From NCBI GenBank assembly GCA_031360915.1, contig JANMCE010000123.1, forward strand, positions 3,168-67,167: DNA of 64,000 nucleotides, read 5' to 3'. Both the position numbers and the translations under genes were made by a program. Positions 8,041 to 37,126 of this stretch are shown here, in pieces (position 1 is the first letter of the stretch; each line of letters starts with the position of its first letter). The notes under the pieces are model-generated. The model saw nothing but the letters and a program-made list of their open reading frames with translations. It did no database searches and was not told the DNA's origin. This DNA comes from Actinomycetes bacterium. GTDB lineage: Bacteria > Actinomycetota > Acidimicrobiia > Acidimicrobiales > Ilumatobacteraceae.

Positions 8041-8067
8041 GATCGAGAGGAAATACAGAAATCTTCC
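8041..8067 (-). promoter_or_regulatory. Candidate ECF-type promoter in the spacer before gene 7 (GGAAG-N17-CGATC)
   Basis: Minus strand ctGGAAGatttctgtatttcctctCGATC, about 60 nt upstream of ATG 7984. The pattern resembles the site at 29395-29419. Confidence 0.15.
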
Positions 8068-8185
8068 AGAATCTTTTTGACTCCGGATTCCGATCAGTCT
8101 TAAGGGCGACATCCTGTATTTGCGCCGGTCCCCGAGCGGAACACGCCACGGACATTGCCACAAACACTGGTCTCGCCGTGCTCTG

Positions 8186-11638: not shown

Positions 11639-14600
11639 GCCCCACCGCCCGAACCGCCAGCGCCCGACCCGCCCGGGCCGCCGGTGTCGTCGACCGGCAG
11701 CACCCGAATCCAGCCCTCCTGCAGGTTGTGGGGTTGCTCGGGCAACAGCGCGGTCTGGCTCGAGGCCAAGATGGCGTCGTCTTTCCACGTGAGCGGTGTG
11801 TCGCGCCGGGTGAAGACCTGCTTGTCACCTAACCCGGTCACCCGTGGCATGCGGATGCCCGTCGGGTCGACCAGCACCGGACCCACCCGGAACGAGGGGG
11901 ACAGTTTGGTGAGCGTGTCGTGGAACCAGTCCCGGGCCAGGGCCAGCGACTTGCGAGGCAGCACCCCGCTGGTGGCGTGCACCTTGCCACCCGGTGCCAT
12001 CAGCAGAGTGAGGCGCACCGTCTGCTCGGGACGAACCGCCACCGAGGATTCGGCCGCGATGTATGGATGGGTAATGGCCCGGGCGTCCGGGGGCAGTTGC
12101 GAGCCGCGTCCGAACACCGAGAGTTGGCCCTGCATCCGCCCGCTGCGACGGGCCAGACTGCGAATCTCGGGAGCGACGGCCTGCACCCGGGAGTAGTCGT
12201 CGTCGACGGCGTAGGCCAATAAGCCGTCGTCGGTGCGGGTGAGTTCGCCCAGCCGGACCGCGATGGCCTTGGAACGTAGGTCCCGGTAGGCGGCGGCTCG
12301 GGCGTCGCGATCCGCCTGGGAGGGATAAGACAGCTCGTCAAGGTCGTCCAGCACATCGAGGCGCAGGGTGGCGCGCACCACCGCGATGGGTCGACCGACC
12401 AGACCGGCCACCGCACCCGAGCCGATCGAACCAAGGGGGTCGGTGGTCCACAGTGTCGTGTCGATGGCTCGCAACAACGCGCTCAGCGCACTGTCGGGCT
12501 GGGTGTCGGCGTCGGGGCCGTTGCGCACCGTGGCGTCCGTCGAGATGAGGCCGACCGCTAGGCGGGTGAGGTGGCGGGCCCCCGGATCGGGGCCGGGGTC
12601 GGGTGGCCCGCCGATGGGACCAGTACGGCCAGGTGCCCCCTCCCACATCACCGTGCCGGTGATGGGGTCATGCATGAGTTGGCCGAGCGAGAACCCCGAC
12701 GCATCGAAGAATTCGAGTGCCTCATCGACATGATCGGGCAGCAGCCAGCCGGCCACCGGGCTGATAGCCAGGTCCGGATGTTGCTGGTCGATACGGGCAT
12801 CGACTTCGACGGTGCCGTCGGCCGGGCGAGGGTCGACGAAGCGGAAGTTCAGGCGGGCCGGACGCTGCCACCGAGGGGCCAGCGTGAGGGTCGGCGCACC
12901 GTCGGGATGATCGATCGTGTCGGCCATCTCGGCCCGAGCCAATACCGCGTCGGGCACGTCGAGGAAGCGCCCGAACGCATCCACGATACGCAGCCGCTTC
13001 ACGGTGGCTTTCCCGCCGGCCAGCAGCAACGGCAGACCCAACGCCCGCGGTTTGGCGTCACCGTTGCCGTCGCTGTCCTGCAGGGTGCCATCGGTCTTGA
13101 TGCGCAGGCGGGTGGCATCGTGCGGATCTAGGCCCAACAGCACTTCGCGCACCCCGCGCAACGACGCGGCCACCACGTCGGTACCCGGGGCTGCGGCGAC
13201 GGCAGCGGCCAATTCGCCCTCGCGGCGGTCGCTGACCTGGCCCACCTTGGCCACGTCGCGTTGGCGTTCCTCCTCCAGCCACTTTGTGATTTCGGCGGCC
13301 AACGCCGGCGCAGCCGAGCCGGTCAAAAGCGACCGGCCGACCACAGCCACGGACCTGCTGCCGGTGGCCGTCAGGCCGTCTTTGGGCGCGGTGTCGATCT
13401 GGCCAAGATCCCAGCCATCGAGGCGGTCATCGACGGCCAGATCGAGTTCCCAGTCGCACCACAACGGAACCCAGGCCTGAGCCCACCTTGTCCAACCGAC
13501 CGGCGACATGTCCTCCCCCTGACCGACCGACGCGGGTCGAAGCGCGTCCCGCACGTGGTGGTCGAGCACGGGTTCGATCTCCCGGCCCGTCGGATGAAAG
13601 GCGTAGCGCAAGGTCATCTCGGCCCGCACCCGATTGCCGACGGCCTGCAACGGCAACCGCTGACCCTCGGCCGACCAGATCGAAATTTCCTGCCAGCGGT
13701 ACGGATCGAACAACACCGCCTCCTGCAGCAGCAGATCCATTTCCGGCGGGATTGACCCGGAGCCGAACGACCGCAGCCCAGGAGGCACATGCCGGCTAGC
13801 CACCACGCCTTCCAGACCTCGGGCGATGCCACTGGGCAACCGGCAGCCGAGGAGCTGCCCCGGGTCATGGTTGCGGTCGCCGCCGTGGCGCAACGAACGG
13901 TGCGCGTGTCGCACCAGCACCGTCAGGTCGGCCGGGACGAAGTAGCGCGGCTGGCTGGCCGGAACGTCACGAAACGATCGGGGAGGGCGCGGCGCCTTCA
14001 CCTGACCATAACGCTGGGAAAGATCGGCAGCCTGCACCGCTGCGTAGTCCCGGGACACCAATTCCACTCGATGCTTGAGACGAGCCGCGCCCAACTGCGA
14101 CCCCGTGGACGGCGCAATGGGTGAGGCTGTGGGGGCCGGTCGGTCGGTGTCGGTCGGCGTCATGATGTCGCCTTGGGCGATGCGGTCGGGCGTGGCTTTC
14201 ACCCCGGCCGAGGTGCCCACGAAGGTGGACCCGTGACGGTATTCGTCGATGGCGACCAAGCCGCCGGCCGCGTCGATGGTGGGTAGGAGACCACCAGCGA
14301 ACGCGGCCAGGACTTGCTCAGACGATCGGCGCTGTTCATTGGTGCCGTCGGCCAACATGGCGGCCAGCGCCGCCGACGGGGTGGGCCCGACGGCGATTTC
14401 GACATCATCGACGTTGGGTGCCAAGTCACGTTCCACCTTCAACCGCACCCCGAATACCGCGCCGTGTACCACCGTCTGGCGAGGGGCGTTCGGCTTGTCG
14501 TGGACGAACAGCGTCGCGTCATCCTGGAGGAATCGGGACGACGCCATCATCACCGACGCAGCGGGATCGGCGGTGACCGGGTCAGCCGTGAGCCGGTCGA

Positions 14601-15543
14601 CCGAAGCCGCACGGGCCGCATATCCCGCGCCCAACGGGGCGGCCGACTTCAGTCGCAGGGCACCCCGGCGGGCGGCACCACTACCCCGCTGGTCGGCATC
14701 ATCGGTGACGCCTTCGGGCACCGGAGCCAACCAACCCAGCCATTGGGTGCGGTCCTTGTACCGACCGAGCGAGGTGACGTCATGCAGCGGATCGATGGCC
14801 GGATCCGACCACCATCCCGCCACCAGGTACGACACCCGAAGCGAGTCGAGCGTTGTCGGGTCGAGATCGGCCAGGTCATCGTGGAACGCGAATCGGTCGA
14901 TGACTGCGTCGTAGGTGGCCGCCCAGGCCACGTCGCCGCCCGCCACCGCCGTCAAGGTTTCTCGGCTGATGTAGCGCCTGCCACTCGCTCCCGTTCGGGT
15001 GGTGCCGGGCGCCGGCGCCGGCAGCGGACCAGGCTCGCGCCAGCCGAGCAGGTCCTGGTGATCACCACGGTCGGCTTCCAACACCCACGAACGCACCACC
15101 TGGCTGCCGTGCACCAACCGGCCTACCACCCAGCGATCCGGCAGCGGGGGCAATCCGAGCGGGTTCCCGGCCGGGTGGGCCGTGTCGCGGGTCTTGCCGG
15201 CATCGCCCCGGGTGAGGCCATCGGGCATTGCCCAGTGCAGGTGGATGCCGGCGGCGCGACCGGTGGGGGCTCCGAAGGGTTCAGGCGGTATCGGCATCAC
15301 CTCGGCCCTCTCGGTACCGGGCACGGTGATCGGCACAACCGTTTCGGTCGGCACGATCGCCACGGTGTCGCCCGGCCCGACGACCAAGGCCTGTACGTCC
15401 ATGGGCACGACCAGGCGGGTGTCTCGGGGCAGGTGGCTGTCCCAGGTGCCGATCGCCGAGATCGAGAGATCGGTTCGTACCAGCGCGGCGTAGCGGGGTG
15501 AGGCCACCACTTTCTTGAGCAGTTCGGGGTCGACACCAGCCAT
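11635..15543 (-). CDS. Giant-operon gene 5: hypothetical 1302-aa protein
   Basis: The ATG lies 3 nt after the gene 4 stop, with AGGAGG (15551-15556) inside the last codons of gene 4. The frame is uninterrupted and ends in a Gly-rich tail (GGPGGSGAGGSGGGA). No recognised catalytic or NTPase motif. Confidence 0.8.
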   Translation of the reverse strand: MAGVDPELLKKVVASPRYAALVRTDLSISAIGTWDSHLPRDTRLVVPMDVQALVVGPGDTVAIVPTETVVPITVPGTERAEVMPIPPEPFGAPTGRAAGIHLHWAMPDGLTRGDAGKTRDTAHPAGNPLGLPPLPDRWVVGRLVHGSQVVRSWVLEADRGDHQDLLGWREPGPLPAPAPGTTRTGASGRRYISRETLTAVAGGDVAWAATYDAVIDRFAFHDDLADLDPTTLDSLRVSYLVAGWWSDPAIDPLHDVTSLGRYKDRTQWLGWLAPVPEGVTDDADQRGSGAARRGALRLKSAAPLGAGYAARAASVDRLTADPVTADPAASVMMASSRFLQDDATLFVHDKPNAPRQTVVHGAVFGVRLKVERDLAPNVDDVEIAVGPTPSAALAAMLADGTNEQRRSSEQVLAAFAGGLLPTIDAAGGLVAIDEYRHGSTFVGTSAGVKATPDRIAQGDIMTPTDTDRPAPTASPIAPSTGSQLGAARLKHRVELVSRDYAAVQAADLSQRYGQVKAPRPPRSFRDVPASQPRYFVPADLTVLVRHAHRSLRHGGDRNHDPGQLLGCRLPSGIARGLEGVVASRHVPPGLRSFGSGSIPPEMDLLLQEAVLFDPYRWQEISIWSAEGQRLPLQAVGNRVRAEMTLRYAFHPTGREIEPVLDHHVRDALRPASVGQGEDMSPVGWTRWAQAWVPLWCDWELDLAVDDRLDGWDLGQIDTAPKDGLTATGSRSVAVVGRSLLTGSAAPALAAEITKWLEEERQRDVAKVGQVSDRREGELAAAVAAAPGTDVVAASLRGVREVLLGLDPHDATRLRIKTDGTLQDSDGNGDAKPRALGLPLLLAGGKATVKRLRIVDAFGRFLDVPDAVLARAEMADTIDHPDGAPTLTLAPRWQRPARLNFRFVDPRPADGTVEVDARIDQQHPDLAISPVAGWLLPDHVDEALEFFDASGFSLGQLMHDPITGTVMWEGAPGRTGPIGGPPDPGPDPGARHLTRLAVGLISTDATVRNGPDADTQPDSALSALLRAIDTTLWTTDPLGSIGSGAVAGLVGRPIAVVRATLRLDVLDDLDELSYPSQADRDARAAAYRDLRSKAIAVRLGELTRTDDGLLAYAVDDDYSRVQAVAPEIRSLARRSGRMQGQLSVFGRGSQLPPDARAITHPYIAAESSVAVRPEQTVRLTLLMAPGGKVHATSGVLPRKSLALARDWFHDTLTKLSPSFRVGPVLVDPTGIRMPRVTGLGDKQVFTRRDTPLTWKDDAILASSQTALLPEQPHNLQEGWIRVLPVDDTGGPGGSGAGGSGGGA

Positions 15544-15546: not shown

Positions 15547-16581
15547 TCAGCCTCCTTGGTTCCACTGCCGCAACACCGAGATTCCCACGGTGGGTTTGAA
15601 CATTTGGGCGAACGTCAACACCTGACCACCCGAAACGGTTCCCTTGTCGGGGTCGCCGAAGACCTGACGGAACGGGAATTGCAGCATCTCGAGGGCGAAT
15701 TCGGCGCTCTGCACTCCGGCGCCCTCAAAGTCGTTGACGTGGGTCGCGGTTTGCTGGGTGATGCGGCGAGCCAATTCGGTGATGTGAACCACACCGGGGG
15801 CCGAACGCCGGAACGGCACCTTCTTGGCCAGATCACCCGGCGGGCGCGGCTGTTGTTTGTCGAGGCGAACGGCTGTGAGCACGTTACGCAACGGGATGGT
15901 GGCGCCGGTGGTACCCGTGGCGTTCTCGGGCAGATCGACCCCGAATTGAATGCCCGATCGAGGTTCCTCGATATGCACCACTTCGGGGACACCATCGAAC
16001 AGACAGAGCAGCACGGCCGGCGCAAGTCGTTCCAGACGCAACAATCGGATGCGATGCGGGTCGTCCTCGTTCACCAAGGCGTCATCCGCACCGACTTCGG
16101 CCGAGTAGGCCCGCACATGCAGATTCGGCCATCCCGACACGGCGCGGGAGCGAAGAATGAACCCCGTGATGGCGTGGGCTTCAGCCACCTCGGGACCGTT
16201 CTCGCCACCCACCACGCGCACTTGGCGCTCGGCCGAATCGACCTCATTGCGGATGATGGTATGCAGGCTCTGCACCTGCTCGCGATCAAGGGTAGTGATG
16301 GTGCCGACCGACAACGCACCCTGCACCATGGCGTCGGTCCAGTCCCGATCGACGTAGAAGAACCGGATGGATTCAGGCGGCAAAAGTTCACTGTCGGGCA
16401 CCAGATGCGCGAACGGGACACCCTCGAGCAGGCGGACGCGGGCCAACCAGGTGCGCACCAAATCGGGCAGCGCACCCCCGACCGGTTCGGCCCCCACCAC
16501 GCCCACCCGATGATCAACGGCTTGGGCCGCGGCGGTGAAGACCAGCGGGTTGGTGACGAAGTGGGCGTACGTGCTGGCCAT
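15547..16581 (-). CDS. Giant-operon gene 4: hypothetical 344-aa protein
   Basis: ATG 16581 shares one nt with the gene 3 TGA (TGATG). Strong coding bias and no recognised motif. Confidence 0.8.
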   Translation of the reverse strand: MASTYAHFVTNPLVFTAAAQAVDHRVGVVGAEPVGGALPDLVRTWLARVRLLEGVPFAHLVPDSELLPPESIRFFYVDRDWTDAMVQGALSVGTITTLDREQVQSLHTIIRNEVDSAERQVRVVGGENGPEVAEAHAITGFILRSRAVSGWPNLHVRAYSAEVGADDALVNEDDPHRIRLLRLERLAPAVLLCLFDGVPEVVHIEEPRSGIQFGVDLPENATGTTGATIPLRNVLTAVRLDKQQPRPPGDLAKKVPFRRSAPGVVHITELARRITQQTATHVNDFEGAGVQSAEFALEMLQFPFRQVFGDPDKGTVSGGQVLTFAQMFKPTVGISVLRQWNQGG

Positions 16582-18659
16582 CAGTTCCCCTCCCGCAACA
16601 AGATGTCGAGCGCATCAGGCTCAACGGTTCCACCCGGGTCCTGCGGCAGCACCGAGCCGGGCGGGGCCGGGTCGGGCAGCACCGAGCCGGGCAGCAGGCC
16701 GGGGGGTCGGCCGATACCGCGACTGAAGGCCGCCCGGGCCACATCGGTGGCGGCCTCGAGCACCGCCTGGCGCAGGGGCCCCAGCAGATCCTGCGCCTTT
16801 TCCGCCAGATCACGGAACTGGTCGTCATTGCGTGCGACCGGCACCTCGACCGAGCCGAGTCGACGCTGCGCCTCGGGGAAGATCAGGTCCTTCACCATCT
16901 CGGGGCGCAGACCGAAGCCAGTCGCCAGCAGTTCGATCGGATCGTTGTCATCGATCCCTTCGATCGGCACGCCGGGTTCGATCAACGGCCGTGTCCGACC
17001 GAGCCGAGCGGCGCCATTAGACCCGAGGTTGGCGATGACGTCGTGGCTCACCCGGGCTGCGAAGCCACGGGTTACGTCGTCGAACCCGAGGTGATTGAGC
17101 CCGGCGTGGCCCGCGGCCATGGTGGCCCGGTGAGACTCGTCGAACCCGTCCTTGCGCCAGGTCAAGAGGGCGGCGACCACGCTCGGCTCGGCCAGCGCCA
17201 GCAGTCGACCGATCTCGAACCCGGTGGCAGCGCCGAGGTTTTCCCGACCGTCGGGGCCAACTCGGCGAAGCTGGTCACTGGTGTGGGCCAAGGGCAGCGG
17301 CTTGCCCGCCTCAGGTTCCTGACGCACTGTCGGGCGCGGTACCAATGGACCGCGATACCAGACGGTGGTCGGTTCTCCTTCCCGGGTGACGTGGTCAAGC
17401 GATATGTGGCCGGTGTCGAGCACCTCGGGCGGCTTTCGAGTGGCGGGGGGCGGTGCCTTCTCCCCCGGCTTGGTAGGGGCAATATCGGGCAGGGTCCCGA
17501 TCATGCCGACGTCGAGACCCTGCATCAGGGACTGGAAGTCGCCCGCTCCGACACAGGTGAACTCCCAGTGAGCCAGCACGGGAAAGGTGTACTTGGCGAT
17601 GAGCGGCGCAATGATCGACAGGTCGATGTTGTGCATCGCACCGACCAGATGGGCGGTGTAGGTCGCGGTGGCCGTGGTACCCGAACTTGGATTAACCGGT
17701 TGGGTATGCGGGTTCGACCAGGCATCTACCGAGGTGAACGCCCGGACCGCGGTGACCCCTCGCTCGACCACCGCGGCCTCGACCACTGAGGCCACGCCGG
17801 GCATAGCATCGCTAGCGCTGATGCCAAGCCAGGCGGGTACGTCCGACTGGTAGGCCACGTCGGGATAGTGACCGGCGTACGAGAGCTGGTCGATGTGGGC
17901 GATCACGTCCGGGTACACGTAGATCTTGTCGAACTGATCATCGAACAACGCCTCGTGCGTGCGCAGCTTGTCGTACTGGCCTTCCACCGAGATCAGGCAG
18001 GCCCGATACCGCACGCCCGGCTGCGGCAGACGGTTGCCGATGACCACCGCCATCCACCCGTCGTCGTCACCGAGGGCCAACTCGGTATCGGCCAGGTCGA
18101 CCTCGCGTACATGGGCGAGCAGCGGGAGTTCCGCCTGCGACGGGAAGACCTCATCCACCACGTCCTGGGTGACGATGATGCGATCGCCCCGATCGACGTC
18201 GTTACGGCCCTCAAGCACCACCCCCGGCGTCACACATTCGGCCACCGGTTTGCCCGACTCAAAGGTGCACTCGCCGTCGGCCAGCAGCACCAGTGCCATC
18301 CACGGCACTAAGCGCTGCGCGCTGTTCGGGTCCATCGACACCGCCTTGCCGTCGAGTTCTCGTTCCCACGGCAAGGTGCGCCGCTTCAAGACGATCTGGG
18401 GGAGGCGGGAACTGAACGCGCCCTGCGACGCGTTCGGCGGGAAGGTGGAAAGCACCTGGTCGGGGGGCAACAGAAACCGCGGGGCGGTCACTTCGATGTG
18501 ATAGTCGAGTGGGTCGATGTCGACGTCGAGCGCACCTCCCGGGTTCACGGTTTGGGTGTCGCTGTGGATGTGTTGGCGCACCTCGACCACGTACGGCCCG
18601 GCGGGCACATCGGGGATGGCGTTGCTGTGCAGTACGAACTTGCCCGGAGTGATGGTCAC
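16581..18659 (-). CDS. Giant-operon gene 3: hypothetical ~692-aa protein
   Basis: GTG 18659 overlaps the gene 2 TGA (GTGA); the track ORF start at 18713 would overlap gene 2 by 58 nt. The C-terminal PGSVLP duplication is encoded by an 18-nt direct repeat near 16636-16700. Confidence 0.8.
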   Translation of the reverse strand: MTITPGKFVLHSNAIPDVPAGPYVVEVRQHIHSDTQTVNPGGALDVDIDPLDYHIEVTAPRFLLPPDQVLSTFPPNASQGAFSSRLPQIVLKRRTLPWERELDGKAVSMDPNSAQRLVPWMALVLLADGECTFESGKPVAECVTPGVVLEGRNDVDRGDRIIVTQDVVDEVFPSQAELPLLAHVREVDLADTELALGDDDGWMAVVIGNRLPQPGVRYRACLISVEGQYDKLRTHEALFDDQFDKIYVYPDVIAHIDQLSYAGHYPDVAYQSDVPAWLGISASDAMPGVASVVEAAVVERGVTAVRAFTSVDAWSNPHTQPVNPSSGTTATATYTAHLVGAMHNIDLSIIAPLIAKYTFPVLAHWEFTCVGAGDFQSLMQGLDVGMIGTLPDIAPTKPGEKAPPPATRKPPEVLDTGHISLDHVTREGEPTTVWYRGPLVPRPTVRQEPEAGKPLPLAHTSDQLRRVGPDGRENLGAATGFEIGRLLALAEPSVVAALLTWRKDGFDESHRATMAAGHAGLNHLGFDDVTRGFAARVSHDVIANLGSNGAARLGRTRPLIEPGVPIEGIDDNDPIELLATGFGLRPEMVKDLIFPEAQRRLGSVEVPVARNDDQFRDLAEKAQDLLGPLRQAVLEAATDVARAAFSRGIGRPPGLLPGSVLPDPAPPGSVLPQDPGGTVEPDALDILLREGN

Positions 18660-21600
18660 GGCCGAACCTCCTGGAAGCGGTCTTGTTGTGGGCCGTTGTG
18701 GGGCGGGAGCCACCGGATGTGGGTAACGCCCTGACTATCGGCGACCAGGTTGGCGAGCAGACCGTCGAAGCCCCTGGCCGCCAACTGGCGGGCCAGTTCG
18801 TCGGCCGACACCGGCGCTCCCAGCACACCCGACAGGTGGGTGTGTTCCCCGCTCGCCACGCTCACCTGCACGGGCACGGAGCGGCCGGTCTCGTCGCGAT
18901 CCGGTTCCACCGAGTACACGCCGAAGGTACCCGATCCGGAGACCACGACGTGGGCGGGCACAGGTTCACCATCGGCCCCCAGGGTGCGGGTGGCGCCGAC
19001 CATGCCGAGTTCGAGTCCGTCGGCCCGACCGTCACCGGTGGGATCCGCTTCCTCCATCGCCACCGCGATGGCGGTCACCCCGGCCGGCAATGAAGTGGTC
19101 GTCACCGAGTATCCGGCCACGGCGACGCCGGCCGTCGTGAACGCCACCGTCACCTCCTGCCCACCCCTTCGGGTGCGCAACGCCGAACTCCACAGGGTCG
19201 AGCCGGGCGCGGCGACAGCGAAGGTGCCGATCTGCGCCACGCGAGTGGTGCTGTGCCAGCCTGCGATGCCGTCGAGCGTGCCGCCACCGCCCAGCACCAT
19301 CACCGTCCACGTCTTGGATGGCAGCACGACAAACCCCTGACGAACCCGCACGTCACGCACGACGGCACCGACGGTGTCGAGGGCGATGACCCGAGCCGGG
19401 AGTCCACCCGAGATTTCGAGACTGTGCCGCTGATCGGCGACGTCGTTGTCGGCGTTGGCGAAGGTGAAAATGGTCGCCTCGCCGGGCAGCAGATCGAATC
19501 CGTCCGAGGCCAGATTTCGGGTCAGGCCGTCGAGTCGTTCGGCGACGAAGGGCCGTTGGCCGGGTTGGCGTCGCAACTCGCCGCCGCTGCCAGCCCGTCC
19601 GGTAAACGCAGTTGTACCGCCAATCACCGTGGTGTCGGTCGACTGGCCGGGCGTGCCGGTGAGCACGAGGCGTGCTGCGACTCGCACATCACCGGCGGCC
19701 AGCACATCGGCGATGCGACGGGGCGTGACCCGAGGGACGTCGCCGGCCTGCGACACAGACGTTCGTTGCGGCGCGGCGACGGCCCGGCTCGGCGTGGATG
19801 CGAGCAGCCCATCGACCCGCGGTGGGACCGGTACCAGATCGGGCTCCACCGGACCCCCAGGGGGCGGACGTTGGGCGACGGCGGCGAACGGCAGTGGGTC
19901 GGTCGCCATGGCAAAGGTCAGCGGCAACAATTGCGGCGGCGCGGCCCGACCGTTGCGGAACGACAACGCCCCCAAGGGGGTGAACTGTGAGCCTTTGGCC
20001 CCAGCCACCAACCACTCATGCGCCTGGGCCAGCACATCGAGCGATGCATTCGGCGTCGCCGCCGCCAAGGCGGCGGCCGCCGTCACGTCGGCCGCCCGTT
20101 CGGCCCGCACGGCATGCTCGGCCAGGAACGGCAACTGGTGGCGCTTGCCGATCTCGACCTGGTGGTAATCGATCGGCACCGTGCCCGGCGCGATGGCCGG
20201 GGCCCCGATGAGGGAAACCGAGTTCCCGCTCAGGATGGTCTCGCCGGTGGGTACCGGCTTGTCACTGCGGTTCGGGCCCCATACCCCTTTCGGGAAGGCC
20301 CCGGTCACCACAAATGCATCGAGGTTGCCCACATGATTCGTCCCGTCGGCGCGGTTGATGATGCCGATACGCAGCGACGATTTCACCGACGCCCGATGCA
20401 TAGGGCCGATGGCTAGTGGCTGACCCCCCTGTACTGGCACCGAACCGCTGGTTACCACCTCGGAGGCCGCGGCCGTGGTGGTCACCATCAGCACGAACTC
20501 GGGCAGGATCAACACCGGGTCGCTTGCGCTGGCCCCAGTGGGGGGCTTGTTGGCCGTGGCCGGATTCGGCGGCAGCTGCCCCTTGCCGACAATGGCCGTG
20601 AGTACCCGGGCGCCATCCTGGCGCAGGTACTTGTCGTAGAACGCGCCCCACTCGAGCACCGGCGTGGAGTTGTCACCCTCATCGCCGAAGGAAATGGAGG
20701 CGCTGGTGACACCGAGGTCGATGGTGGCCCGACCATGGAAGTCGGGTCCGGCCAGATACACATCGGCATGCAGGTGGATGCTGATGGTGATGCGGATGTG
20801 ACCGAACCAGCCGAGGTCGATGTCGATGGTGATGCCCGCGCCCAGTTCGGCGTAGGCGGTGACTTCGAAGTGGAACGGGTCGAAATAGATAATCCCGTCG
20901 GCGCCGAGCCGCAGGTACGCCCACAACGGACCCAGGGTGAGCGCCGCCTCGAATCGGGTGCCGGCCATGATTGCCTCAGAGGTGAGCGCGAAATAGCTCT
21001 CGCCCTTGATCACCAGGACGCTGCCGATGCTCCAAACGAAGCCGAGTCGGGGCACCACCGGGTAGCCCTTGCGCTGGAACGACGGGTGATATCCGCCCAG
21101 GGTCAGCACGAACTCGCCGGCGCCGGGCCCGCCGTTGGGCTGGTTCTTGAACCACATCACGTAAGCGAATCCGCCGGTGAGTCGGCAGTCGGGCGTGAGC
21201 AGCCACGAGTTATCGGTGAGCTGCGCCTGTATCCACAGCACGCCGTCGCGGGTGGAGAAACGCACAAGGAGCGCCAGTTCGATCTGCACCAGCGGGAACG
21301 CGGTGGTGGGCAACGCCGCTCGGGCCAGACCGAGCAGGTTCACGTCGAGCCCGTCGGCAATCAGGATGCCGATCACCGCGATGCCATCCACCAGAGCGAA
21401 CGACGTGAACGAAATACCGGCCGCGAACCAGAACGCACCCCGTTGCGGTGGGAAATAGCTGCGAAGTTCGTCGAGCGCACCCATGGGGTCAGTGGTGGCT
21501 TTGGCGTTCGGGTCGAGGGCCTTCAGCAACGGGTACGACGGGAACTTGTTCATGTCGCTGGGCAGGAGCAGCAGACGGTTGACACCTACCCCGGCACCCA

Positions 21601-24600
21601 ACCCCGTGACGAAGAAGGCGGGCGGCCCGCCGATCGGGGCCACCAGCGCACCGAAAATGAACAGCGACGTGAAGTCGCCGTGGGTATCGGTAATGACGGC
21701 GTACCCGCCGTAGGCCGAGATGCCGTACACCCCGAATCGGATACTGATCATGCCGACGTAATCGGGTGCGCTGCCCGGCGCTCGCCGCAGGCCGCCGGTG
21801 ATCACGACGCCGCCGGTATCCGACGACACGGCGAGTCCGGCCAGCCCGACTTCCCAGGCCAGCGGGCTGTAGATGGGCGGATCGCTGGGCACTTGTGGCC
21901 ACCGCACACCGACGGCCAGATCGTCGACGGCGACGGTGAGGCCGAGCAGCGACACCTTGCCGTCTACCATCACCCGGGCCGCGATCACCTGGTTGCCGGA
22001 CTTGCTGACCCCGAAGCCGACCTGCTCGATATACACCGGACCGAAGCCGCGTTGGATGGTGACCCACCACGGCCCCTCGCCGGTCCCGGCCCGCAAGTCG
22101 ACCTTGACCGGACCACCCTTGTGATGCTGCACGGCCAGGGCAGGGCTGAACTTGGGGGCCGGTTTCTCTGCCCCACTCGAGCTGTCTCGCAGCACCCCGC
22201 TGGCCACCTTGTTGTTGCTGTCCGACGCCGAACCGACCGGTACGGCCAACCCGGTCAGTTCGAGCTGACCGCCGGCACCGGTGACGCCGCTCGTGGCATC
22301 GATGGCGAGGTGCCCGTGGACGGCCATGGAATCGACGGTGAACAGGGTATTCAGCAGCGGGCCGCTCTTGCTGCCGATCCGAATCCCGATACCGTCGATG
22401 GCGATCCCGAAGAAGACCTCGGGCGTGCCGCCTTTGACCCGTAAGACCTCGACCAGCAGCCCCTCGGCGGGGGTCCCCTCGATCCAGGTGCCATCCACCT
22501 CGATATCGACAGTGGTTTCGCCGTCGGCCAGGTTGAAGCGTCCGCCCGGCTCGAGGGAGATGGCGAGACCGTATACGTCACCATTGCCACCGTCGACGCG
22601 TTTGGCCAGGGCCACGGTAAGGGGATCGATGTTGACTTTGGGCGTGTGGGCGGCGATGTTGGCGGCCAACTGCAGGAGGCGTTTCCAGAGTTGCGCGGTG
22701 TCGAGCACACCTGTGTCGAACGTCGACCCGGTGAAGACGACCCCGGCAAGCAGCTGTTTAATGGTGGCCCCACCGAACACCACTCGGGCAAGCAGATCGT
22801 CGACCTCCTTCTGAGCTAGAGCCAAGTCGACCAGCACCGGTACCAGCAGATCGACGAGCACCTCGGGAAGCGACCCACCGGTGGTCTCGAGCGCGAACGT
22901 GGGCGACGAGGTGAGATGCAATACTCCGGCTACCTGCTTGACGCCATCGAGGGCCAGCCCGACCGCCAGGCGCGGACCACCTGCCGCGTTGCTGCCGATG
23001 GCGATCTCGGCAAGTGGCGCCAGCCGGAGGGAACCGAAGGCCACCGCCGAGGCCGGCGCAATGGCGAACCGGGTGCGACCCTCGACCAGACCGGTGTGAT
23101 CGACCGTCAGTCCGGCACCAATCAATGCGCCGGTAAACGGTGACAGACCATCGATTGTGGCCGCGATGCGAGCCCCGGCGGCCAGCGGGCCACTCACCGG
23201 AACGCTCACCCGCACTGACCCGGCGACGCCGCCATTGAGATAGGTGAGCACCAGTTCGTCACCGACACGGGTGAGGGTGACGCCGGTCGGCAGGGATCCC
23301 GCCACCACCGCGGCGAGGGCATCGAGCGCCGTCGGCAGCGCGGTACGCAGACGTTGGGCCAGTTGTCCGACCGGGTCGGCCACCAGTTGGGCCAGTTGGG
23401 CGCTGTCGAATTTGGACGTCACCCGTAGCCCGGTGGCGTCACCGAAGCCGGCGAGGGCCACGCCGACCTCATGGCCGAGGCTGCCGTTCGGGATGCCGAC
23501 CACGGCATCGAGTACGTACGGCAGGGCGTAGGTGACCGCCGCATGGGCCACGTCGCCGACCGCACCCAGACCGGGGCCGCGGGGCAATAACTGCAGGTCG
23601 ATGTGGCTGGCCGGCATGATCAGTCGGGCGGCCACACCGGTCGGGGCCATGTCAACCACCAGCCGCCCAGCGGTGGTGAGCGGTGAGCCGTCGGGGAGGG
23701 CCAACACCAACCGGGCGTCGGGCCGCGCCACCAATCCGGGGCCGCCCAGCGATACCCCCACGCTACCGGCCAGTCGCAGGCCGGTAGCGTCGATGGGCTG
23801 GTCGATACCGAGCGCCAGGTGCGCCCGTCCCGCGGTGGTGCCGGCGGTGAGGGCGAGGCCGAAGGGCAGCGCCCATGTTCCGGGGCCGCTGCTCACCCCG
23901 AGCAGACCACCGACCGCGTCGGTGAGCGACGCCAGGCGGGCTCCGTCGAACGCCTCGGCCACGGCCAGCAGTCCGGCGAACCAGCGCTGGGGGTCGATGA
24001 ATAGGCCGAGTGGGGGCCGCACTCGAATGGCGTCGCCGGAGCCGACCAGCACTCCGAGGGCTCGCAGGGTGGGATCGAGGCGGTCTCGGGCGGCGCTGGG
24101 GGCTCCGCGCAACTCTGCCACCAGACCACCGACCAATTCGGCCGGGACCAGGGCGACCAGCGTGCGGGCCAGGCGGGCCGTGTCCGGGGTGGGCAGAAGT
24201 TCGATCGAGCCGGGGCCGGCATCGGGCCAGATCAGTTGCACCGTCCACGGCGCGCCAGACACCTCCAGCACTGCGCCGGAGGATCCGAACGCCACCCCGA
24301 ACTGGCCGCCGATCGAACCATCAAGCTTGCGTTCCAGTCGTCCGGTGAGCGTGGCCCCGGCGGCAAAGGCCAAGCCCGAGCCGGTCGTCGCGACCGCCAG
24401 CGCGCCGGTGGCCAGATCGGCGGAAAGTCGCACGCCATCCATCTCGACGGCGAATGCCGAGGGGGTGGATGGATCGGGTGCCACGCCGCCAAGCAGGTCG
24501 GTGAGCGCGGCAGCCACCCTCGGGGCCCGCACCGCGGTGCGCAGGTCGGCCAGCAGCCCCGACGGGTCAACGAGCAATCGGCGGATACCTTCCACCGAAA

Positions 24601-27600
24601 AACCCACCGGCCCACCAACGACGGCCGGCATACTCGGGTCTAGCAGGCCAATCACATCGAGCAAGGCCACCAGCTGGCGGATCGGCCCACTGGCAGGAAG
24701 GGGCCCGAGAGACGATGCCAAACGCCCGATCAGTACCTGCGCCTCGGGCATCAGGGGCAAACCGTTCTGCAGGTCGGTGTGGCTGATCACCCATCGGCGT
24801 CGGCTGACGCCCAACGCCTCGGCCTCATGCAGCACGATGCGGGCCGAGACGGACAGTCCGGTGGTGAAGGGAGCGTCGAGCTGGATTTCGGCCCGTCGCA
24901 ACGACGGTTGCCGAGACGCCGAGCCGGGCCGAGCCGGGTCGGGGCCACCCGCCAGCCAGCCGCCGACCCGGTCCACCACGATGCGGGCCCGGAAACCTGC
25001 ACCCGACTGATCCGGTGACCCGAGACCCGCCAACGTCGCCGCCAATTCCACCCGTAGTCGCACCGCACCCGGCGCGGCATCGGGCGCAATCACCATGTTC
25101 AGCCCGCCATGCAGCACGTCGATGCCCACCTCAACATCAGGATCGGCACCAGGATCATCCGCCGGCGATGACGTCTCGAAGACGTCTTGTAGGCCGCGCA
25201 CGATCACGCCGGTGATGGCCTTGGAGATGCCGGTGGCGTCCATCACCCCACGGACGCAATGGACATCGACCGTGCCCGGAATCGTCGGCAACGAGAGCGG
25301 TGGCGATAGTTCGGCCAGTGGCGAGGGGCCGTGCTTCCACACCAGATCGAGGGCGCCGACCATGGCCCGACCGGCCATGACCGCGTCGTGTTCGGGTTGA
25401 TCGACGTCGACGGCGGGCAGCAACCGGGCCAGAAGTTGGTACGCACCGGCGGCTGGTTGGGTCTCAACGACATCGAGGCCGATGCCGCCATGGGGCGTGC
25501 CAACGGTGACCAGATGGGTCACACCGGCGACGGTGGCCGCGACCCATGCCGCAGCATGCCCGGCTGCACCGTGGGCCACCAGCATCACCGGGCCACCTCC
25601 GCCCACCCGCGTGACGACGGCGGCGACGGCACGGGCCAGTCGCGCCGTCTGACGGGCCGCGCCGTCATCGGCACCGTTGGTGGCCGCATCGGCCCGACTG
25701 GCCAGCAGCACCAACCACGGACCGTCCTGGGCATCGAGACGGGAGACATCGAGCGCGTCGGGCGACAACCCAGCGGCGCGCAGATCGAGCACGTGATCCG
25801 ACGCCACCCCCGGCCATTCGGTAGGTCCGAGCGGGCCAGCAACGAACACCGTTCCGGCACCGACCGCCGGCAGGCCCAGGGCCGAAAGGTCGAGCGCCTC
25901 CACCAACGCGCCGTGAGCGACACGGGTCAGATCATGGTTGATGGCCCCCGGGATGGTGGCCGACGCGGACGAAACCAGACCGTCGGAGCCCAGCCAGCGG
26001 GCCGCCAGTGCCGTGAACCCGTCGTTGAGATCATCTCGGGCGGCGAGCAGGTCGGCCAACACCGAGCTGTGCACTGACGCGTGGCGCAGCGCCGCGGCCA
26101 GGCGCTCCGCTGGTGGCTCGGCTACCAAGCCATCATCCGCGGTGATCCAACTCAGCAGGTCGCCGGGCCGGAACACGTCGACATTGAGATCCGGCTCGTG
26201 TGGAGACCACAGCAGCAGCTCGATGCGCCGGGCCGCGTCGGCCGCCAGCGCCGACAGCGGCAAGGTGAACGGATCGTGCGGCACCCCGCGACCGAGCAGG
26301 CGGCCGATGGCTGTGTCGGGATCGAGCGGGCCGAGCAAGGTCAGAGCCAGCCGCTCGGCCACCGCCGCCAGCCGGCCATCCTGGGCCAAACCGCCGACCA
26401 GATCGGCGACCGTACCGATGGGATCGGTGACCAGGTCTTCCAGGCTGAGGCGCACCTGGAGGCCGCGTTCGTCGCGCTCCTCCCAGCGGAACAGGCCGAT
26501 CAGTTCGTCCAACCACGGGCGCTTGAGCCGGCGCAGTAGGTTGGCCAGCAGTCGTTCGAGCACCAGCCATGGCACGTCGCCGGTGAAGGTGCCGTCGGGG
26601 TGAAGCGTCGGGAGCGCGAACGGCATCGCTTCACCGTCGATGCGAGCAGTGAGCTCATCCAGCACCGGTTCCAGCGTGAAGCCCGCCCCCGTGGCCCACC
26701 CGAAACGCAGGCCGGCGCGGGCCGTCTCGACCGCGGCCGCGTCAGATCCGAGCCGCAGGACACGGCCGTCGTTTCGCTCGAACACCAGCCCGGCGGCGAG
26801 GCTACCGACGGCCTGACCGCCGCTCCCGTCGAGATGGATGCGCACCAGTTCGGCCCGCAGATCCAGGCGGGCGCCGGGCCAACTGGCACCCAACCCGAGC
26901 GCAGCATGGTCGACGGCCAGGCCGAGGTGCAGGGTGGCTGGCGCGCCGTCGGCCCACACCACGACGGCCACATCTCCGGCCAGCGGCAAGCGCCACGGAT
27001 CGACGACGGTGCCCGTGCCCGACACAGCCGAGACTGTCGTGGACACCAAGCCCTGCAGCGCGTCGAGTACTGCGCCGTAGCCCGCGGCGTGGGTTCGGAT
27101 GACCCGATCGTGGTAGCCGACCATGGCACCAACGGGGTTGCCGAGGAAGTCGGGCAGCGTGGTGAGTGTGACCGGCCAGCCGACCTGCCCGGCCGGCGCC
27201 CCTAGTCCCAGCAGCACCTTGACCGCGTCCCCGGCGGCACCGAGGTGAGCGAGCACCAGATCAGCGACGTCGCCCACGACCGCCCCACCCACGTCGGCCA
27301 GCGTGTGGGTGTTGGTGAGATCGAGCACGTCGTAGTGATGGGTGCCGATATCGACATTGTGGGCGGCCAGCACCAAGCCCGGTTTGCGGTCAGCGCCCAG
27401 GGTGAGGCCCAGCTCGAGTGAACCGACCTTGACGCCAGGTGCCGGCGTGGCGCTGTCCAGTAGCCGTTCGCCCTGCTTGCCGACGTGGCCCGCGAGTTGG
27501 ACGGACGGTAGGCCGCGCACGGACGGTGTCGCGCCGACGGTCACTCGCACCAGGGTGGCCGACAGGGCCAGCCGCCCGGACGGGGTGGTACCCGATGCCG

Positions 27601-28618
27601 TGGTTTGCGGGGTGGTCACCTCGACGCCCAACTCGAACAGCGGATCGCCAGCCGCGGTGCGACCGGCTAGCACCAGCGCGTCGATGGCGACCCCGGTGGC
27701 CGTCGTCCACCGCACTCGATGGGGCAGTCCGGGGCCGCCCGCGGCCACGACGGTGCCGACATTTCCCGACAACTTGGCGGCGTGACTCAGCCAGGCATCG
27801 ACCGCCACACTGTCTTGCAACAGGGTATCCAGCCAAGTCCGCCAGGCCGAGGCACCGTGGGCGAAGATGTCCGCGATCGGCAGAACGGGCAGCCGCGAGT
27901 CGGCGCTCAGGCCAACCAGGGAGAGCAGTTCGCTCAGTTCACCCGACGCCGAGGCCAGCGATTGCTGCACGACACCAAGCACCAGACGCACGGCTTCGTC
28001 GGCCAGCCCGGGGCCGGCGGTACCCCCGATGGCGAAATCGTGCGGGGTCTGCTGGCCGGGCAGTTGCAGGCCGCGGAGCGATACCTGCAGGCTGGGCGCG
28101 CTGCCATCGGTGGCGACCTGCGCCCCTACGACGATGCCGTGGAGACCGGCCTGCCCGGGCGCCGGGGTGGTGTCCATGGTTACGTCAACGTCGAGCTCCA
28201 CCCGGCCGTCGGCATGCCCGAGCAGCACGGTGGCGGCGCCCGAGTTCGGTATCCGCATGAGCGGGACCAGCAAGGTCAGAAGCGCGGTGGGGCCGGTCGT
28301 CGACGCTCGAACGCCAAGCCCTAAATCGACCGCAGTCGATCCGACGGCCAAGACGACATGCAACGAAATCGGTGGATGGGCGAAGAGTTGCAGCCAGCGG
28401 CGGCCGGCGGAGTCGACCACGGCGTCGCCGCCCTCGTGCAGCATGGATTGCACCGCTCGACACAGGGCGTCTCGCTGCTCGGGGTTGCGCAGCATCTGTC
28501 CGACGGACTCGCCGGGTGACGCGAACCACGCGGTGTTCAGCTGATCGGCTTTGACCAAGCCGATGGCCTTGGCTAAGTCGAGGACCGGCCCCAGGTCGTT
28601 GGCAGTCGGGGCGGTCAT
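18656..28618 (-). CDS. Giant-operon gene 2: 3320-aa hypothetical protein
   Basis: A single 9963-nt frame whose ATG overlaps the gene 1 TGA (ATGA). It is Ala/Gly/Leu/Val-rich and non-repetitive, with no signal peptide. It contains a lipase/PGAP1-like signature lacking Ser (VMLVAHGAAGH...LVTVGTPHGG) and a hydrophobic core region (…FFVTGLGAGVGVNRLLLLP…). Confidence 0.85.
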   Translation of the reverse strand: MTAPTANDLGPVLDLAKAIGLVKADQLNTAWFASPGESVGQMLRNPEQRDALCRAVQSMLHEGGDAVVDSAGRRWLQLFAHPPISLHVVLAVGSTAVDLGLGVRASTTGPTALLTLLVPLMRIPNSGAATVLLGHADGRVELDVDVTMDTTPAPGQAGLHGIVVGAQVATDGSAPSLQVSLRGLQLPGQQTPHDFAIGGTAGPGLADEAVRLVLGVVQQSLASASGELSELLSLVGLSADSRLPVLPIADIFAHGASAWRTWLDTLLQDSVAVDAWLSHAAKLSGNVGTVVAAGGPGLPHRVRWTTATGVAIDALVLAGRTAAGDPLFELGVEVTTPQTTASGTTPSGRLALSATLVRVTVGATPSVRGLPSVQLAGHVGKQGERLLDSATPAPGVKVGSLELGLTLGADRKPGLVLAAHNVDIGTHHYDVLDLTNTHTLADVGGAVVGDVADLVLAHLGAAGDAVKVLLGLGAPAGQVGWPVTLTTLPDFLGNPVGAMVGYHDRVIRTHAAGYGAVLDALQGLVSTTVSAVSGTGTVVDPWRLPLAGDVAVVVWADGAPATLHLGLAVDHAALGLGASWPGARLDLRAELVRIHLDGSGGQAVGSLAAGLVFERNDGRVLRLGSDAAAVETARAGLRFGWATGAGFTLEPVLDELTARIDGEAMPFALPTLHPDGTFTGDVPWLVLERLLANLLRRLKRPWLDELIGLFRWEERDERGLQVRLSLEDLVTDPIGTVADLVGGLAQDGRLAAVAERLALTLLGPLDPDTAIGRLLGRGVPHDPFTLPLSALAADAARRIELLLWSPHEPDLNVDVFRPGDLLSWITADDGLVAEPPAERLAAALRHASVHSSVLADLLAARDDLNDGFTALAARWLGSDGLVSSASATIPGAINHDLTRVAHGALVEALDLSALGLPAVGAGTVFVAGPLGPTEWPGVASDHVLDLRAAGLSPDALDVSRLDAQDGPWLVLLASRADAATNGADDGAARQTARLARAVAAVVTRVGGGGPVMLVAHGAAGHAAAWVAATVAGVTHLVTVGTPHGGIGLDVVETQPAAGAYQLLARLLPAVDVDQPEHDAVMAGRAMVGALDLVWKHGPSPLAELSPPLSLPTIPGTVDVHCVRGVMDATGISKAITGVIVRGLQDVFETSSPADDPGADPDVEVGIDVLHGGLNMVIAPDAAPGAVRLRVELAATLAGLGSPDQSGAGFRARIVVDRVGGWLAGGPDPARPGSASRQPSLRRAEIQLDAPFTTGLSVSARIVLHEAEALGVSRRRWVISHTDLQNGLPLMPEAQVLIGRLASSLGPLPASGPIRQLVALLDVIGLLDPSMPAVVGGPVGFSVEGIRRLLVDPSGLLADLRTAVRAPRVAAALTDLLGGVAPDPSTPSAFAVEMDGVRLSADLATGALAVATTGSGLAFAAGATLTGRLERKLDGSIGGQFGVAFGSSGAVLEVSGAPWTVQLIWPDAGPGSIELLPTPDTARLARTLVALVPAELVGGLVAELRGAPSAARDRLDPTLRALGVLVGSGDAIRVRPPLGLFIDPQRWFAGLLAVAEAFDGARLASLTDAVGGLLGVSSGPGTWALPFGLALTAGTTAGRAHLALGIDQPIDATGLRLAGSVGVSLGGPGLVARPDARLVLALPDGSPLTTAGRLVVDMAPTGVAARLIMPASHIDLQLLPRGPGLGAVGDVAHAAVTYALPYVLDAVVGIPNGSLGHEVGVALAGFGDATGLRVTSKFDSAQLAQLVADPVGQLAQRLRTALPTALDALAAVVAGSLPTGVTLTRVGDELVLTYLNGGVAGSVRVSVPVSGPLAAGARIAATIDGLSPFTGALIGAGLTVDHTGLVEGRTRFAIAPASAVAFGSLRLAPLAEIAIGSNAAGGPRLAVGLALDGVKQVAGVLHLTSSPTFALETTGGSLPEVLVDLLVPVLVDLALAQKEVDDLLARVVFGGATIKQLLAGVVFTGSTFDTGVLDTAQLWKRLLQLAANIAAHTPKVNIDPLTVALAKRVDGGNGDVYGLAISLEPGGRFNLADGETTVDIEVDGTWIEGTPAEGLLVEVLRVKGGTPEVFFGIAIDGIGIRIGSKSGPLLNTLFTVDSMAVHGHLAIDATSGVTGAGGQLELTGLAVPVGSASDSNNKVASGVLRDSSSGAEKPAPKFSPALAVQHHKGGPVKVDLRAGTGEGPWWVTIQRGFGPVYIEQVGFGVSKSGNQVIAARVMVDGKVSLLGLTVAVDDLAVGVRWPQVPSDPPIYSPLAWEVGLAGLAVSSDTGGVVITGGLRRAPGSAPDYVGMISIRFGVYGISAYGGYAVITDTHGDFTSLFIFGALVAPIGGPPAFFVTGLGAGVGVNRLLLLPSDMNKFPSYPLLKALDPNAKATTDPMGALDELRSYFPPQRGAFWFAAGISFTSFALVDGIAVIGILIADGLDVNLLGLARAALPTTAFPLVQIELALLVRFSTRDGVLWIQAQLTDNSWLLTPDCRLTGGFAYVMWFKNQPNGGPGAGEFVLTLGGYHPSFQRKGYPVVPRLGFVWSIGSVLVIKGESYFALTSEAIMAGTRFEAALTLGPLWAYLRLGADGIIYFDPFHFEVTAYAELGAGITIDIDLGWFGHIRITISIHLHADVYLAGPDFHGRATIDLGVTSASISFGDEGDNSTPVLEWGAFYDKYLRQDGARVLTAIVGKGQLPPNPATANKPPTGASASDPVLILPEFVLMVTTTAAASEVVTSGSVPVQGGQPLAIGPMHRASVKSSLRIGIINRADGTNHVGNLDAFVVTGAFPKGVWGPNRSDKPVPTGETILSGNSVSLIGAPAIAPGTVPIDYHQVEIGKRHQLPFLAEHAVRAERAADVTAAAALAAATPNASLDVLAQAHEWLVAGAKGSQFTPLGALSFRNGRAAPPQLLPLTFAMATDPLPFAAVAQRPPPGGPVEPDLVPVPPRVDGLLASTPSRAVAAPQRTSVSQAGDVPRVTPRRIADVLAAGDVRVAARLVLTGTPGQSTDTTVIGGTTAFTGRAGSGGELRRQPGQRPFVAERLDGLTRNLASDGFDLLPGEATIFTFANADNDVADQRHSLEISGGLPARVIALDTVGAVVRDVRVRQGFVVLPSKTWTVMVLGGGGTLDGIAGWHSTTRVAQIGTFAVAAPGSTLWSSALRTRRGGQEVTVAFTTAGVAVAGYSVTTTSLPAGVTAIAVAMEEADPTGDGRADGLELGMVGATRTLGADGEPVPAHVVVSGSGTFGVYSVEPDRDETGRSVPVQVSVASGEHTHLSGVLGAPVSADELARQLAARGFDGLLANLVADSQGVTHIRWLPPHNGPQQDRFQEVRP

Positions 28619-37110: not shown

Positions 37111-37126
37111 AGGGTGGCCCACGCTG
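37111..37126. promoter_or_regulatory. 16-bp perfect palindrome acgctgctagcagcgt upstream of the USP gene
   Basis: It lies 18-33 nt upstream of ATG 37093 in a low-GC stretch. It is either an operator or a 5'-UTR hairpin. Confidence 0.4.

Follow-up and report, generated by a model that had tools for sequence, protein, structure and literature searches.

Why does a reading frame of 9.96 kb stay open when genes around it are broken? The question comes from a 64,000-nucleotide stretch (the window) of contig JANMCE010000123.1, positions 3,168 to 67,167 of the forward strand, in assembly GCA_031360915.1 of an Actinomycetes bacterium belonging to the Ilumatobacteraceae. A preliminary description of this DNA noted an uninterrupted open reading frame (ORF) of 3320 codons and proposed that purifying selection acts on the operon containing it, because at least 15 frameshifts, nonsense codons or truncations were counted in the flanks. 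The conclusion about selection is right, but on better grounds than the contrast with the flanks. What was overlooked is that the frame, here called gene B, belongs to a widespread and strongly conserved cassette of unassigned function, genes A to F. We are all but certain that B is a genuine gene under purifying selection and a member of this conserved, uncharacterised cassette. What the cassette does is a more speculative matter. Our best explanation, a selected member of a conserved cassette whose products act as a complex on the cell envelope, has as a whole a probability of roughly 0.4 in our judgement.

The frame of B contains zero internal stops over its whole length, as had been stated. 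Given this region's base composition, about 1.95 % of random codons should be stops, so that a run of 3320 codons without one has a probability of about 10^-28; the remaining five frames across the same stretch have 27–94 stops apiece. GC content at codon positions 1/2/3 is 0.74/0.52/0.81, a pattern typical for a real high-GC gene. The protein had been described as rich in Ala, Gly, Leu and Val with very few Cys and Lys, and the measured composition agrees: Ala 13.7, Leu 12.7, Gly 12.4 and Val 10.4 % (49 % together), Cys 0.1 % (3 residues) and Lys 1.3 % (42 residues). When 250-residue pieces of B were each compared with the rest of the protein by BLASTP, using shuffled copies as control, no internal sequence repeats were seen (top off-diagonal score 22.7 bits vs 22–28 bits in shuffled copies). 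The view that B is not built from tandem domains, unlike RTX, Ig or cadherin adhesins, thus holds at the sequence level (Pfam, internal BLASTP). B differs from giant repeat adhesins also in having no Pfam repeat family and no hydrophobic leader, and a repeat-built adhesin was rejected because neither internal sequence repeats nor an export signal (hydropathy, N-termini) was found.

Selection was examined in two comparisons. First, contig L003 of a metagenome-assembled genome (MAG), also named 'Actinomycetes bacterium', is collinear with window positions 8646–29303 at 92 % nucleotide identity and has no internal stops. Ratios of non-synonymous to synonymous substitution rates (dN/dS) between the two, calculated by the method of Nei and Gojobori, lie between 0.02 and 0.15 (Table 1), with dS of 0.19–0.31 for the cassette genes; the giant gene, for which this check had been proposed earlier, has 0.118. 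Second, we used 11 independently assembled contigs from other samples that are 98.9–99.9 % identical to the window (population contigs). Here the operon carries 455 substitutions and 0 indels over 86.6 kb aligned, and the flanks carry 392 substitutions and 17 indel occurrences at 7 sites over 111 kb aligned; one contig has in addition flank deletions of about 0.65 and 0.54 kb. The low dN/dS values together with the indel-free operon bear out purifying selection on the operon. Selection of this strength over 21 kb implies an important function. The flank indel sites are outside long homopolymers and the recurrent ones are each common to several independent assemblies; therefore the flank indels are real polymorphisms rather than assembly noise.

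Two further observations concern the base composition and variability of the operon. The substitution density in the population contigs is higher in 8186–29322 (0.53 %) than in the flanks (0.35 %), despite zero operon indels; synonymous and non-synonymous changes are counted together in these values. Recent horizontal transfer, argued from the higher GC of the operon, was rejected: the difference comes from codon positions 1 and 2 of genes for Ala/Gly-rich proteins, and GC at third codon positions (GC3) is 0.81 in the operon, equal to that of the flank genes.

The six minus-strand genes follow each other in the order A-B-C-D-E-F and form a translationally coupled operon of 21.1 kb (8186–29274). 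The junctions from A/B to E/F are ATGA, GTGA, TGATG, a 3-nt gap and ATGA, and the gene starts are preceded by Shine-Dalgarno sequences, i.e. AAGGAGG 4 nt before the ATG of A at 29274 and GGAGG followed by the GTGA overlap in the case of C. Genes A, C and F are called at the same lengths in the population contigs (219, 692 and 1150 aa). A terminator-like hairpin behind F, recognised by its sequence pattern, probably marks the end of the operon.

The same gene order, with orthologues of each gene, was found by tblastn and mapping with profile hidden Markov models (HMMs) at loci L002–L006, L011, L012, L014 and L015, and the order recurs in 22/22 soil and rhizosphere metagenome loci of ≥9 kb mapped with profile HMMs built here. 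Carriers include an Acidobacteriota MAG, an Ilumatobacteraceae MAG, a 5.2-Mb contig, Streptomyces sp. NPDC002088, a Longimicrobium contig and others; the arrangement is thus present in Actinomycetota, Acidobacteriota, Gemmatimonadota and many soil metagenome contigs. Full-length orthologues of B are 95 % (L003), 48 % (the Acidobacteriota MAG, L004) and 35 % (L006) identical, and in L004 the identities of D and E are 64 and 56 %. Across phyla the orthologues of C are 39–58 % identical, with many invariant motifs in common, and those of E are 40–57 % identical, with hundreds of invariant positions and the C-terminal third most conserved. Orthologues of A lie directly upstream of B in L002, L003, L004 and L006.

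An open giant frame is the rule in this family. B is one frame of 3239–3326 codons in short-read assemblies (Streptomyces, Longimicrobium and others) and is unbroken over the 7.7–8.1 kb covered in 15/16 short-read metagenome loci; an unbroken B of about 3300 codons is therefore the usual state in this cassette. Splits of B occur mainly in long-read/Microflora-Danica-type assemblies (L001, L002, L006, L012), where error and decay are indistinguishable. A 3320-aa protein is on record from a contig whose DNA shares about 99.6 % identity with that of the window, yet it is absent from the results of our word-indexed homologue search. Exact-sequence look-ups of B, and of two flank proteins (a 910-aa ATPase and NhaA), gave no match, nor did a megablast search of B against plasmids.

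The best marker of the cassette is D. Its identity is 50–77 % among the 120 matches listed, which come from many phyla; word-indexed search candidates gave 2279 hits, and the family comprises 3405 representative clusters at E ≤ 1e-3 in 1.84 billion proteins. Carriers of the cassette proteins include Streptomyces, Acidobacteriota, Gemmatimonadota, cyanobacteria, Proteobacteria and Paenibacillus. The best 150 representatives contain 12 C-D fusions and one D-E fusion, and a C-D fusion is present also at the plasmid loci L017–L019; Pfam revealed no added domains in ten fused or long D-family proteins. Reduced cassettes are carried by plasmids: a Streptomyces plasmid and S. clavuligerus pSCL4 encode a DUF6603 protein of 850–1430 aa, a C-D fusion and E, and a Paenibacillus plasmid encodes a C-D fusion and E with no DUF6603 within 15 kb. 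Since these parts are kept in the reduced plasmid cassettes, gene content indicates that DUF6603, C, D and E are the core of the cassette and that A, the N-terminal ~2200 residues of B and F characterise a long form. One further variant (L092, 451–14078) has a B of 2610 aa without N-terminal B profile positions 762–1236, which include a hydrolase-like stretch discussed below, and has no F within 6.7 kb downstream of E.

The surroundings of the cassette change from locus to locus. Homology with L003 stops just upstream of A, and none of the window's downstream genes recurs beside the cassette elsewhere. At L014 an insertion sequence (IS) element follows F and a YEATS/pYEATS gene is present. Next to the reduced plasmid cassettes, L018 has CATRA/CHAT conflict genes and transposases, and L017 has a DEAD-box helicase besides two DNA helicases, together with a PLD-like gene and an IS630 element. 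These surroundings give the cassette an accessory and mobile character. A phage origin was not supported, as neither viral contigs, scanned with profiles of D and of DUF6603, nor phage records contained a match.

The only domain that Pfam recognises in B is DUF6603 (PF20248), at residues 2188–2669, with 395 bits against a cut-off of 27 (E = 4.9e-118); the L004 orthologue is matched too. B is therefore a member of this family, yet the domain spans 15 % of the protein and the family has no known function: the 307 homologues found are annotated as DUF6603 or hypothetical only. Note that the word-indexed search gave no protein longer than 1131 aa, and that matches of about 1000 aa may be fragments. 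DUF6603 is the most conserved part of B, with 60–75 % identity to distant orthologues vs 33–54 % mostly elsewhere; the C-terminal region (37–53 %) is found by HMM in all long-form loci. Our searches of the literature for DUF6603, PF20248, IPR046538 and giant genes gave nothing relevant and no mention of the three identifiers.

An AlphaFold2 model of B residues 2100–2749 (pLDDT, the predicted local distance difference test, 84.7; pTM, the predicted template modelling score, 0.70) is confident and nearly all beta, with about 33 strands of 10.5 residues on average. The strands are amphipathic, with a mean hydropathy of +2.17 on one face and −0.42 on the other. DUF6603 is thus predicted to be a large antiparallel beta-sheet. 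Foldseek neighbours of the model are the very large outer-membrane barrels SlpA, MtrB, PapC and LptD and the ApoB100 belt, all of them weak (template modelling (TM) scores of 0.13–0.28, 0.20 for LptD; root-mean-square deviations >20 Å); comparison with viral models gave nothing meaningful. The long, antiparallel and amphipathic strands of the model resemble those of outer-membrane barrels and lipid-binding sheets. Unlike an outer-membrane barrel, DUF6603 has no signal peptide, lies inside a 3320-aa protein and occurs also in bacteria without an outer membrane.

The rest of B and four of the other subunits gave few hints. B residues 1–2187 have no Pfam match in the window or in orthologues, and a 7-orthologue profile has no relative in the PDB. 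A stretch at about 1035–1065 (VMLVAHGAAGHAA...VTVGTPHGG) looks like the nucleophile elbow, and the strand after it, of a lipase-type alpha/beta-hydrolase, but is an unsupported lead: the would-be nucleophile is Gly or Gln, with Ser in 0/5 aligned orthologues, so that a hydrolase at about 1000–1080 is not supported, and the one homologue obtained in a search with residues 850–1400 is an unannotated protein. Comparison with Pfam, NCBIfam, PADLOC and PHROGs gave no match for A, C, D and E and, for B, DUF6603 alone; Pfam on distant orthologues at E ≤ 0.5 gave nothing useful. PDB sequence searches with B alone and with profiles of A, whole B, C, D, E and DUF6603 had no match. Profile–profile comparison of E and C revealed no common module. 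The AlphaFold2 model of D has a moderate pLDDT of 71 and no match among PDB folds (best TM 0.16). Library and motif scans of the six proteins recognised no NTPase, nuclease or protease, and no Walker A, HExxH, HxHxDH, CxxC or DEAD motif. A hydropathy scan showed no membrane-helix-like segments in the six proteins outside the DUF6603 strands.

F is more informative. It has one NCBIfam match, far below the cut-off, when compared with Pfam, NCBIfam, PADLOC and PHROGs. A profile of five F orthologues matches in the PDB the BNR glycosyl hydrolase 3b7f (E = 2.1e-7) and a GH74 xyloglucanase (2cn2/2cn3, E = 4e-3). The 3b7f alignment spans three Asp-box segments, and SxDxGxTW-like motifs are visible in the translation; by these profile matches the N-terminal part of F is an Asp-box (BNR) beta-propeller. 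Long F orthologues of 1770–1890 aa contain an Rv2525c_GlyHyd-like domain (PF08924) above the Pfam cut-off. The window's F has no PF08924, and its sub-threshold matches are PG_binding_3 (E = 0.15) and Sortilin-Vps10 (E = 0.12); the C-terminal part may bind peptidoglycan. The likeness to Asp-box glycosidases and Rv2525c-like domains concerns F, not B.

What could such a set of proteins do? That the genes are tightly coupled and sometimes fused, and that no enzyme was recognised among their products, suggests a structural assembly. In the explanation that we prefer, the six products would assemble into one large complex without a detectable energy-using enzyme, and this complex would act on the cell envelope. 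C, D and E would form a sub-complex, as the C-D and D-E fusions of other organisms suggest. B would be the scaffold, and the amphipathic sheet of its DUF6603 domain could contact or insert into lipid. F would bind glycan or peptidoglycan via the Asp-box propeller and peptidoglycan-related C-terminal modules. The link to the envelope is drawn from the only two functional hints, i.e. the glycan-type propeller of F with its peptidoglycan-related modules and the amphipathic beta-sheet of B. Since N-terminal hydrophobic leaders and predicted membrane helices are missing from all subunits, assembly would take place in the cytoplasm, and the complex would work either once released or while still within the cell that made it. 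Its likeliest role would be in conflict between organisms, either as a toxin-like attack or as a lysis or defence device. An accessory conflict role fits better than housekeeping because the cassette is patchy, plasmid-borne, set in changing flanks and sometimes has conflict genes as neighbours. An envelope-acting conflict machine is our best guess, and a tentative one. It is possible, though doubtful, that it would constitute a bacterial weapon or self-lysis device of a new class, with no relation to Tc toxins, contractile injection systems or known defence systems. In such a weapon, with about 7000 residues per six-subunit set and no nucleotide-using enzyme, F would bind the cell surface and the DUF6603 sheet of B would then breach or remodel the membrane.

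Several points weigh against an envelope-acting conflict complex. Neither within the cassette nor next to it did we recognise a gene for a toxin, immunity, lysis or secretion. We found no variable 'warhead' region, and B, C, D and E are conserved along their whole length. The cassette is carried by both one-membrane and two-membrane bacteria, which is hard to fit to a single envelope target. The apparent lack of a hydrophobic leader at the N-terminus of all six proteins is judged from a hydropathy scan and inspection of the N-termini. The Foldseek matches of DUF6603 (TM ≤0.28) are largely those that any antiparallel sheet would give, and the case for peptidoglycan binding by F of the window comes from sub-threshold matches. 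Finally, the models cover D and 650 residues of B, and the folds of the N-terminal part of B, of C and of E might point elsewhere.

In its logic the putative machine most resembles the Tc (ABC) toxin complexes. Both consist of giant soluble proteins without signal peptide or NTPase, include a beta-propeller and are patchily distributed on islands and plasmids. Surface binding followed by membrane insertion, as in Tc complexes, is also what is proposed here for the cassette products. However, A–F and their orthologues have no TcA, TcB, SpvB or RHS/YD match in Pfam or NCBIfam, no PDB sequence match, no Tc protein among the Foldseek hits and no hypervariable toxic tip, and a Tc toxin was rejected for want of a family, PDB sequence or fold match. 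Another likeness is to the TssF-TssG or gp6-gp7-like baseplate pairs: C and D are adjacent and sometimes fused, and at about 650 and 340 aa they are similar in size to the TssF-TssG pair. Baseplates of contractile systems have been solved. In contrast to these pairs, C and D have no TssF, TssG or Baseplate_J match, the D model has no PDB fold match, and the cassette contains no sheath, tube, spike or ATPase gene and no Pfam or PHROG match to contractile systems. No relatives were found in two viral-contig scans or in phage records. A contractile system was rejected, as nothing matched a sheath, tube, baseplate or spike. No match to any characterised system was thus found, although a new mechanism is not thereby demonstrated.

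Among the alternatives, an intracellular anti-phage or abortive-infection system comes next. In this case the giant proteins would sense infection, and DUF6603 and/or F would damage the membrane or wall of the producer itself. Such a system would account for the patchy occurrence across phyla combined with very high conservation, for carriage on plasmids, for the lack of export signals in all six proteins, and for defence-island-type neighbours: CATRA/CHAT and transposases at L018, helicases, the PLD-like gene and IS630 at L017, YEATS/pYEATS at L014, and in the window a TPR-CHAT gene and an S8 protease gene 2 kb from F. However, these conflict-type neighbours differ from locus to locus, the usual defence enzymes (an NTPase, nuclease or other) are missing, and no PADLOC model matches any of the six proteins in PADLOC-DB of 2023, which covers the systems included by that time. 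We consider a defence role rather unlikely, and it stands close behind the envelope-acting conflict complex in our order of likelihood, with a housekeeping function unlikely.

It can also be asked whether the earlier account should be taken literally, i.e. that the flanks decay at about one lesion per 2–3 kb and selection alone keeps the operon open. Some flank genes are truly broken, and in the population contigs indels segregate exclusively in the flanks. The claimed density is not reached, however. We verified about 5–7 lesions in 42.9 kb, one per 6–8 kb rather than at least 15, and at least 24 of the ~31 right-flank genes have full-length domain matches (Pfam/NCBIfam). Long flank ORFs are intact as well, including the 910-aa ATPase and ORFs of 859 and 784 aa. 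At about 6 lesions per 42.9 kb, chance alone would spare the 9.96-kb ORF with P = 0.25 and the operon with P = 0.05; because of this, and because remnant genes are not random hits, the flank contrast alone proves little. Moreover, intact frames of about 3300 codons are usual for the B family in any genomic context. The literal account is therefore improbable, and the argument from the contrast is weak even where its conclusion is correct.

Still less probable is a housekeeping device for envelope building or lipid transport, with DUF6603 as a lipid-carrying beta-sheet of the AsmA/TamB or LptD kind. The large amphipathic predicted sheet and the weak Foldseek neighbours LptD and ApoB100 would agree with it. 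On the other side are the sporadic distribution, plasmid carriage and variable flanks, the lack of a membrane anchor or signal peptide, TM scores of ≤0.28, and the presence of the cassette in Streptomyces and Paenibacillus, which have no outer membrane. Searches for AsmA, TamB or Lpt membership gave no family match in Pfam or NCBIfam and no anchor, and the LptD likeness has the TM of 0.20 given above. That B is a spurious long ORF of high-GC DNA (the region has 66–70 % GC and the opposite strand has stop-free stretches up to 675 codons) or a nonribosomal peptide/polyketide megasynthase can be set aside, given the chance of about 10^-28, the codon periodicity, the dN/dS of 0.118, the orthologues across phyla and the absence of condensation, adenylation, ketosynthase or carrier domains, with DUF6603 the sole Pfam match.

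The cassette thus comprises six strongly conserved proteins, with more than 7000 residues in all, to which no function has been assigned; they lack a solved relative, and the literature searched does not mention them. If it is indeed an envelope-targeting or defence machine, it would represent an extra class of bacterial conflict systems. It is directly testable, since cultured Streptomyces strains carry it.

Table 1. Subunit genes of the cassette and lesions or candidate lesions in its flanks (window coordinates; dN/dS between the window and L003).
Feature	Coordinates	Strand	Remarks	dN/dS
Gene A	28615..29274	-	219 aa; conserved C-terminal core ~135 aa	0.153
Gene B, giant subunit	18656..28618	-	3320 aa	0.118
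B residues 1-2187, N-terminal region	22058..28618	-	no recognisable domain	
B residues 2188-2669, DUF6603 (PF20248)	20612..22057	-	Pfam	
B residues 2670-3320, C-terminal region	18656..20611	-	less conserved, matches no domain	
Gene C	16581..18659	-	692 aa; start GTG overlapping B stop	0.091
Gene D	15547..16581	-	344 aa; most conserved subunit	0.020
Gene E	11635..15543	-	1302 aa; AAGGAGG before ATG	0.076
Gene F	8186..11638	-	1150 aa; start ATG overlapping E stop	0.139
Terminator-like hairpin	8065..8087	-	~100 nt past F stop; consensus scan, pattern match	
APH-like gene, frameshifted	917-1474		N-terminal part split over two frames	
Low-coding DNA	29.4-30.1 kb		faint DsrE-like trace; ~0.8 kb directly upstream of gene A	
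KhtT-like gene	40797		shortened by 1-nt indel; 119 aa in window	
Na+/H+-exchanger fragment	40947-41648		profile positions 41-180 of 375	
M50/Usp boundary	43000		ambiguous lesion	
Usp-like ORF	45365-45823		ambiguous lesion	
Heavy-metal P-type ATPase, internal fragment	57859-58479		206 aa; TIGR01525 positions 203-414 of 560	

The lesions in Table 1 come from a check of the flanks with Pfam and NCBIfam matches that is not exhaustive, so a few more remnants may exist. The coding state of the flanks was judged by a codon-usage score, as the GC3 frame plot was too noisy for frameshifts. Besides the ATPase, which is P-type, the intact families include ArsR-rhodanese, MBL-rhodanese, MFS, MerR, APH, several Usp, M50, beta-CASP, PAS, TerC, M48, PGPGW, NhaA, DUF389, a baeRF-family-3 protein, PucR, a glycosyltransferase, S8, TPR-CHAT and an ECF sigma factor. 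Gene calls on the population contigs agree with these intact flank genes.

Gene decay in the segment 40400–43200 differs within the population. The KhtT-like gene encodes 153 aa with a TrkA_C part in contigs having one extra base at 40797. The length of the M50 peptidase varies between 416, 376 and 192 aa, as set by the 1-nt indel at 43000 and by deletions of 651 and 540 bp in contig L021. Further to the right, the P-type ATPase fragment sits between a PucR-type regulator and the glycosyltransferase. Larger changes are seen too: contig L020 is collinear up to 33856 and then continues with other genes (methyltransferase, TauE, MBL-rhodanese, MMPL and others), i.e. it is a within-species structural variant. 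On the other side of the cassette, L007–L010 contain a 146-bp segment (L007 18487–18633) that is absent from the window at about 8096. It is located between the F stop and the terminator-like hairpin, and no repeat of it occurs elsewhere in the window.

Downstream of the cassette lie the S8 protease gene (1606–3258, minus strand), the TPR-CHAT gene (3294–5999, plus strand), and a 160-aa ORF with the ECF sigma factor gene (6026–7214, minus strand). On the Streptomyces plasmid L018 a CHAT protein and a 'CATRA conflict system' protein are encoded about 5 kb from the reduced DUF6603 cassette; the pairing of CHAT and cassette was unseen at other loci and may be a coincidence.

To the right of gene A, positions 36290–55479 form a stress-type gene island with five Usp genes, the P-type ATPase, M50, beta-CASP, PAS, TerC, an HtpX-like M48, PGPGW, NhaA, DUF389 and the baeRF-family-3 protein. 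The last of these resembles the AOC03_06830 ribosome hibernation factor family, with a score below the family cut-off. Nearer to the cassette, a sulfur-related module at 30097–33853 consists of the ArsR-rhodanese regulator, MBL-rhodanese, an MFS transporter and a 132-aa rhodanese, an arrangement that resembles BigR/Blh-type sulfide-response operons.

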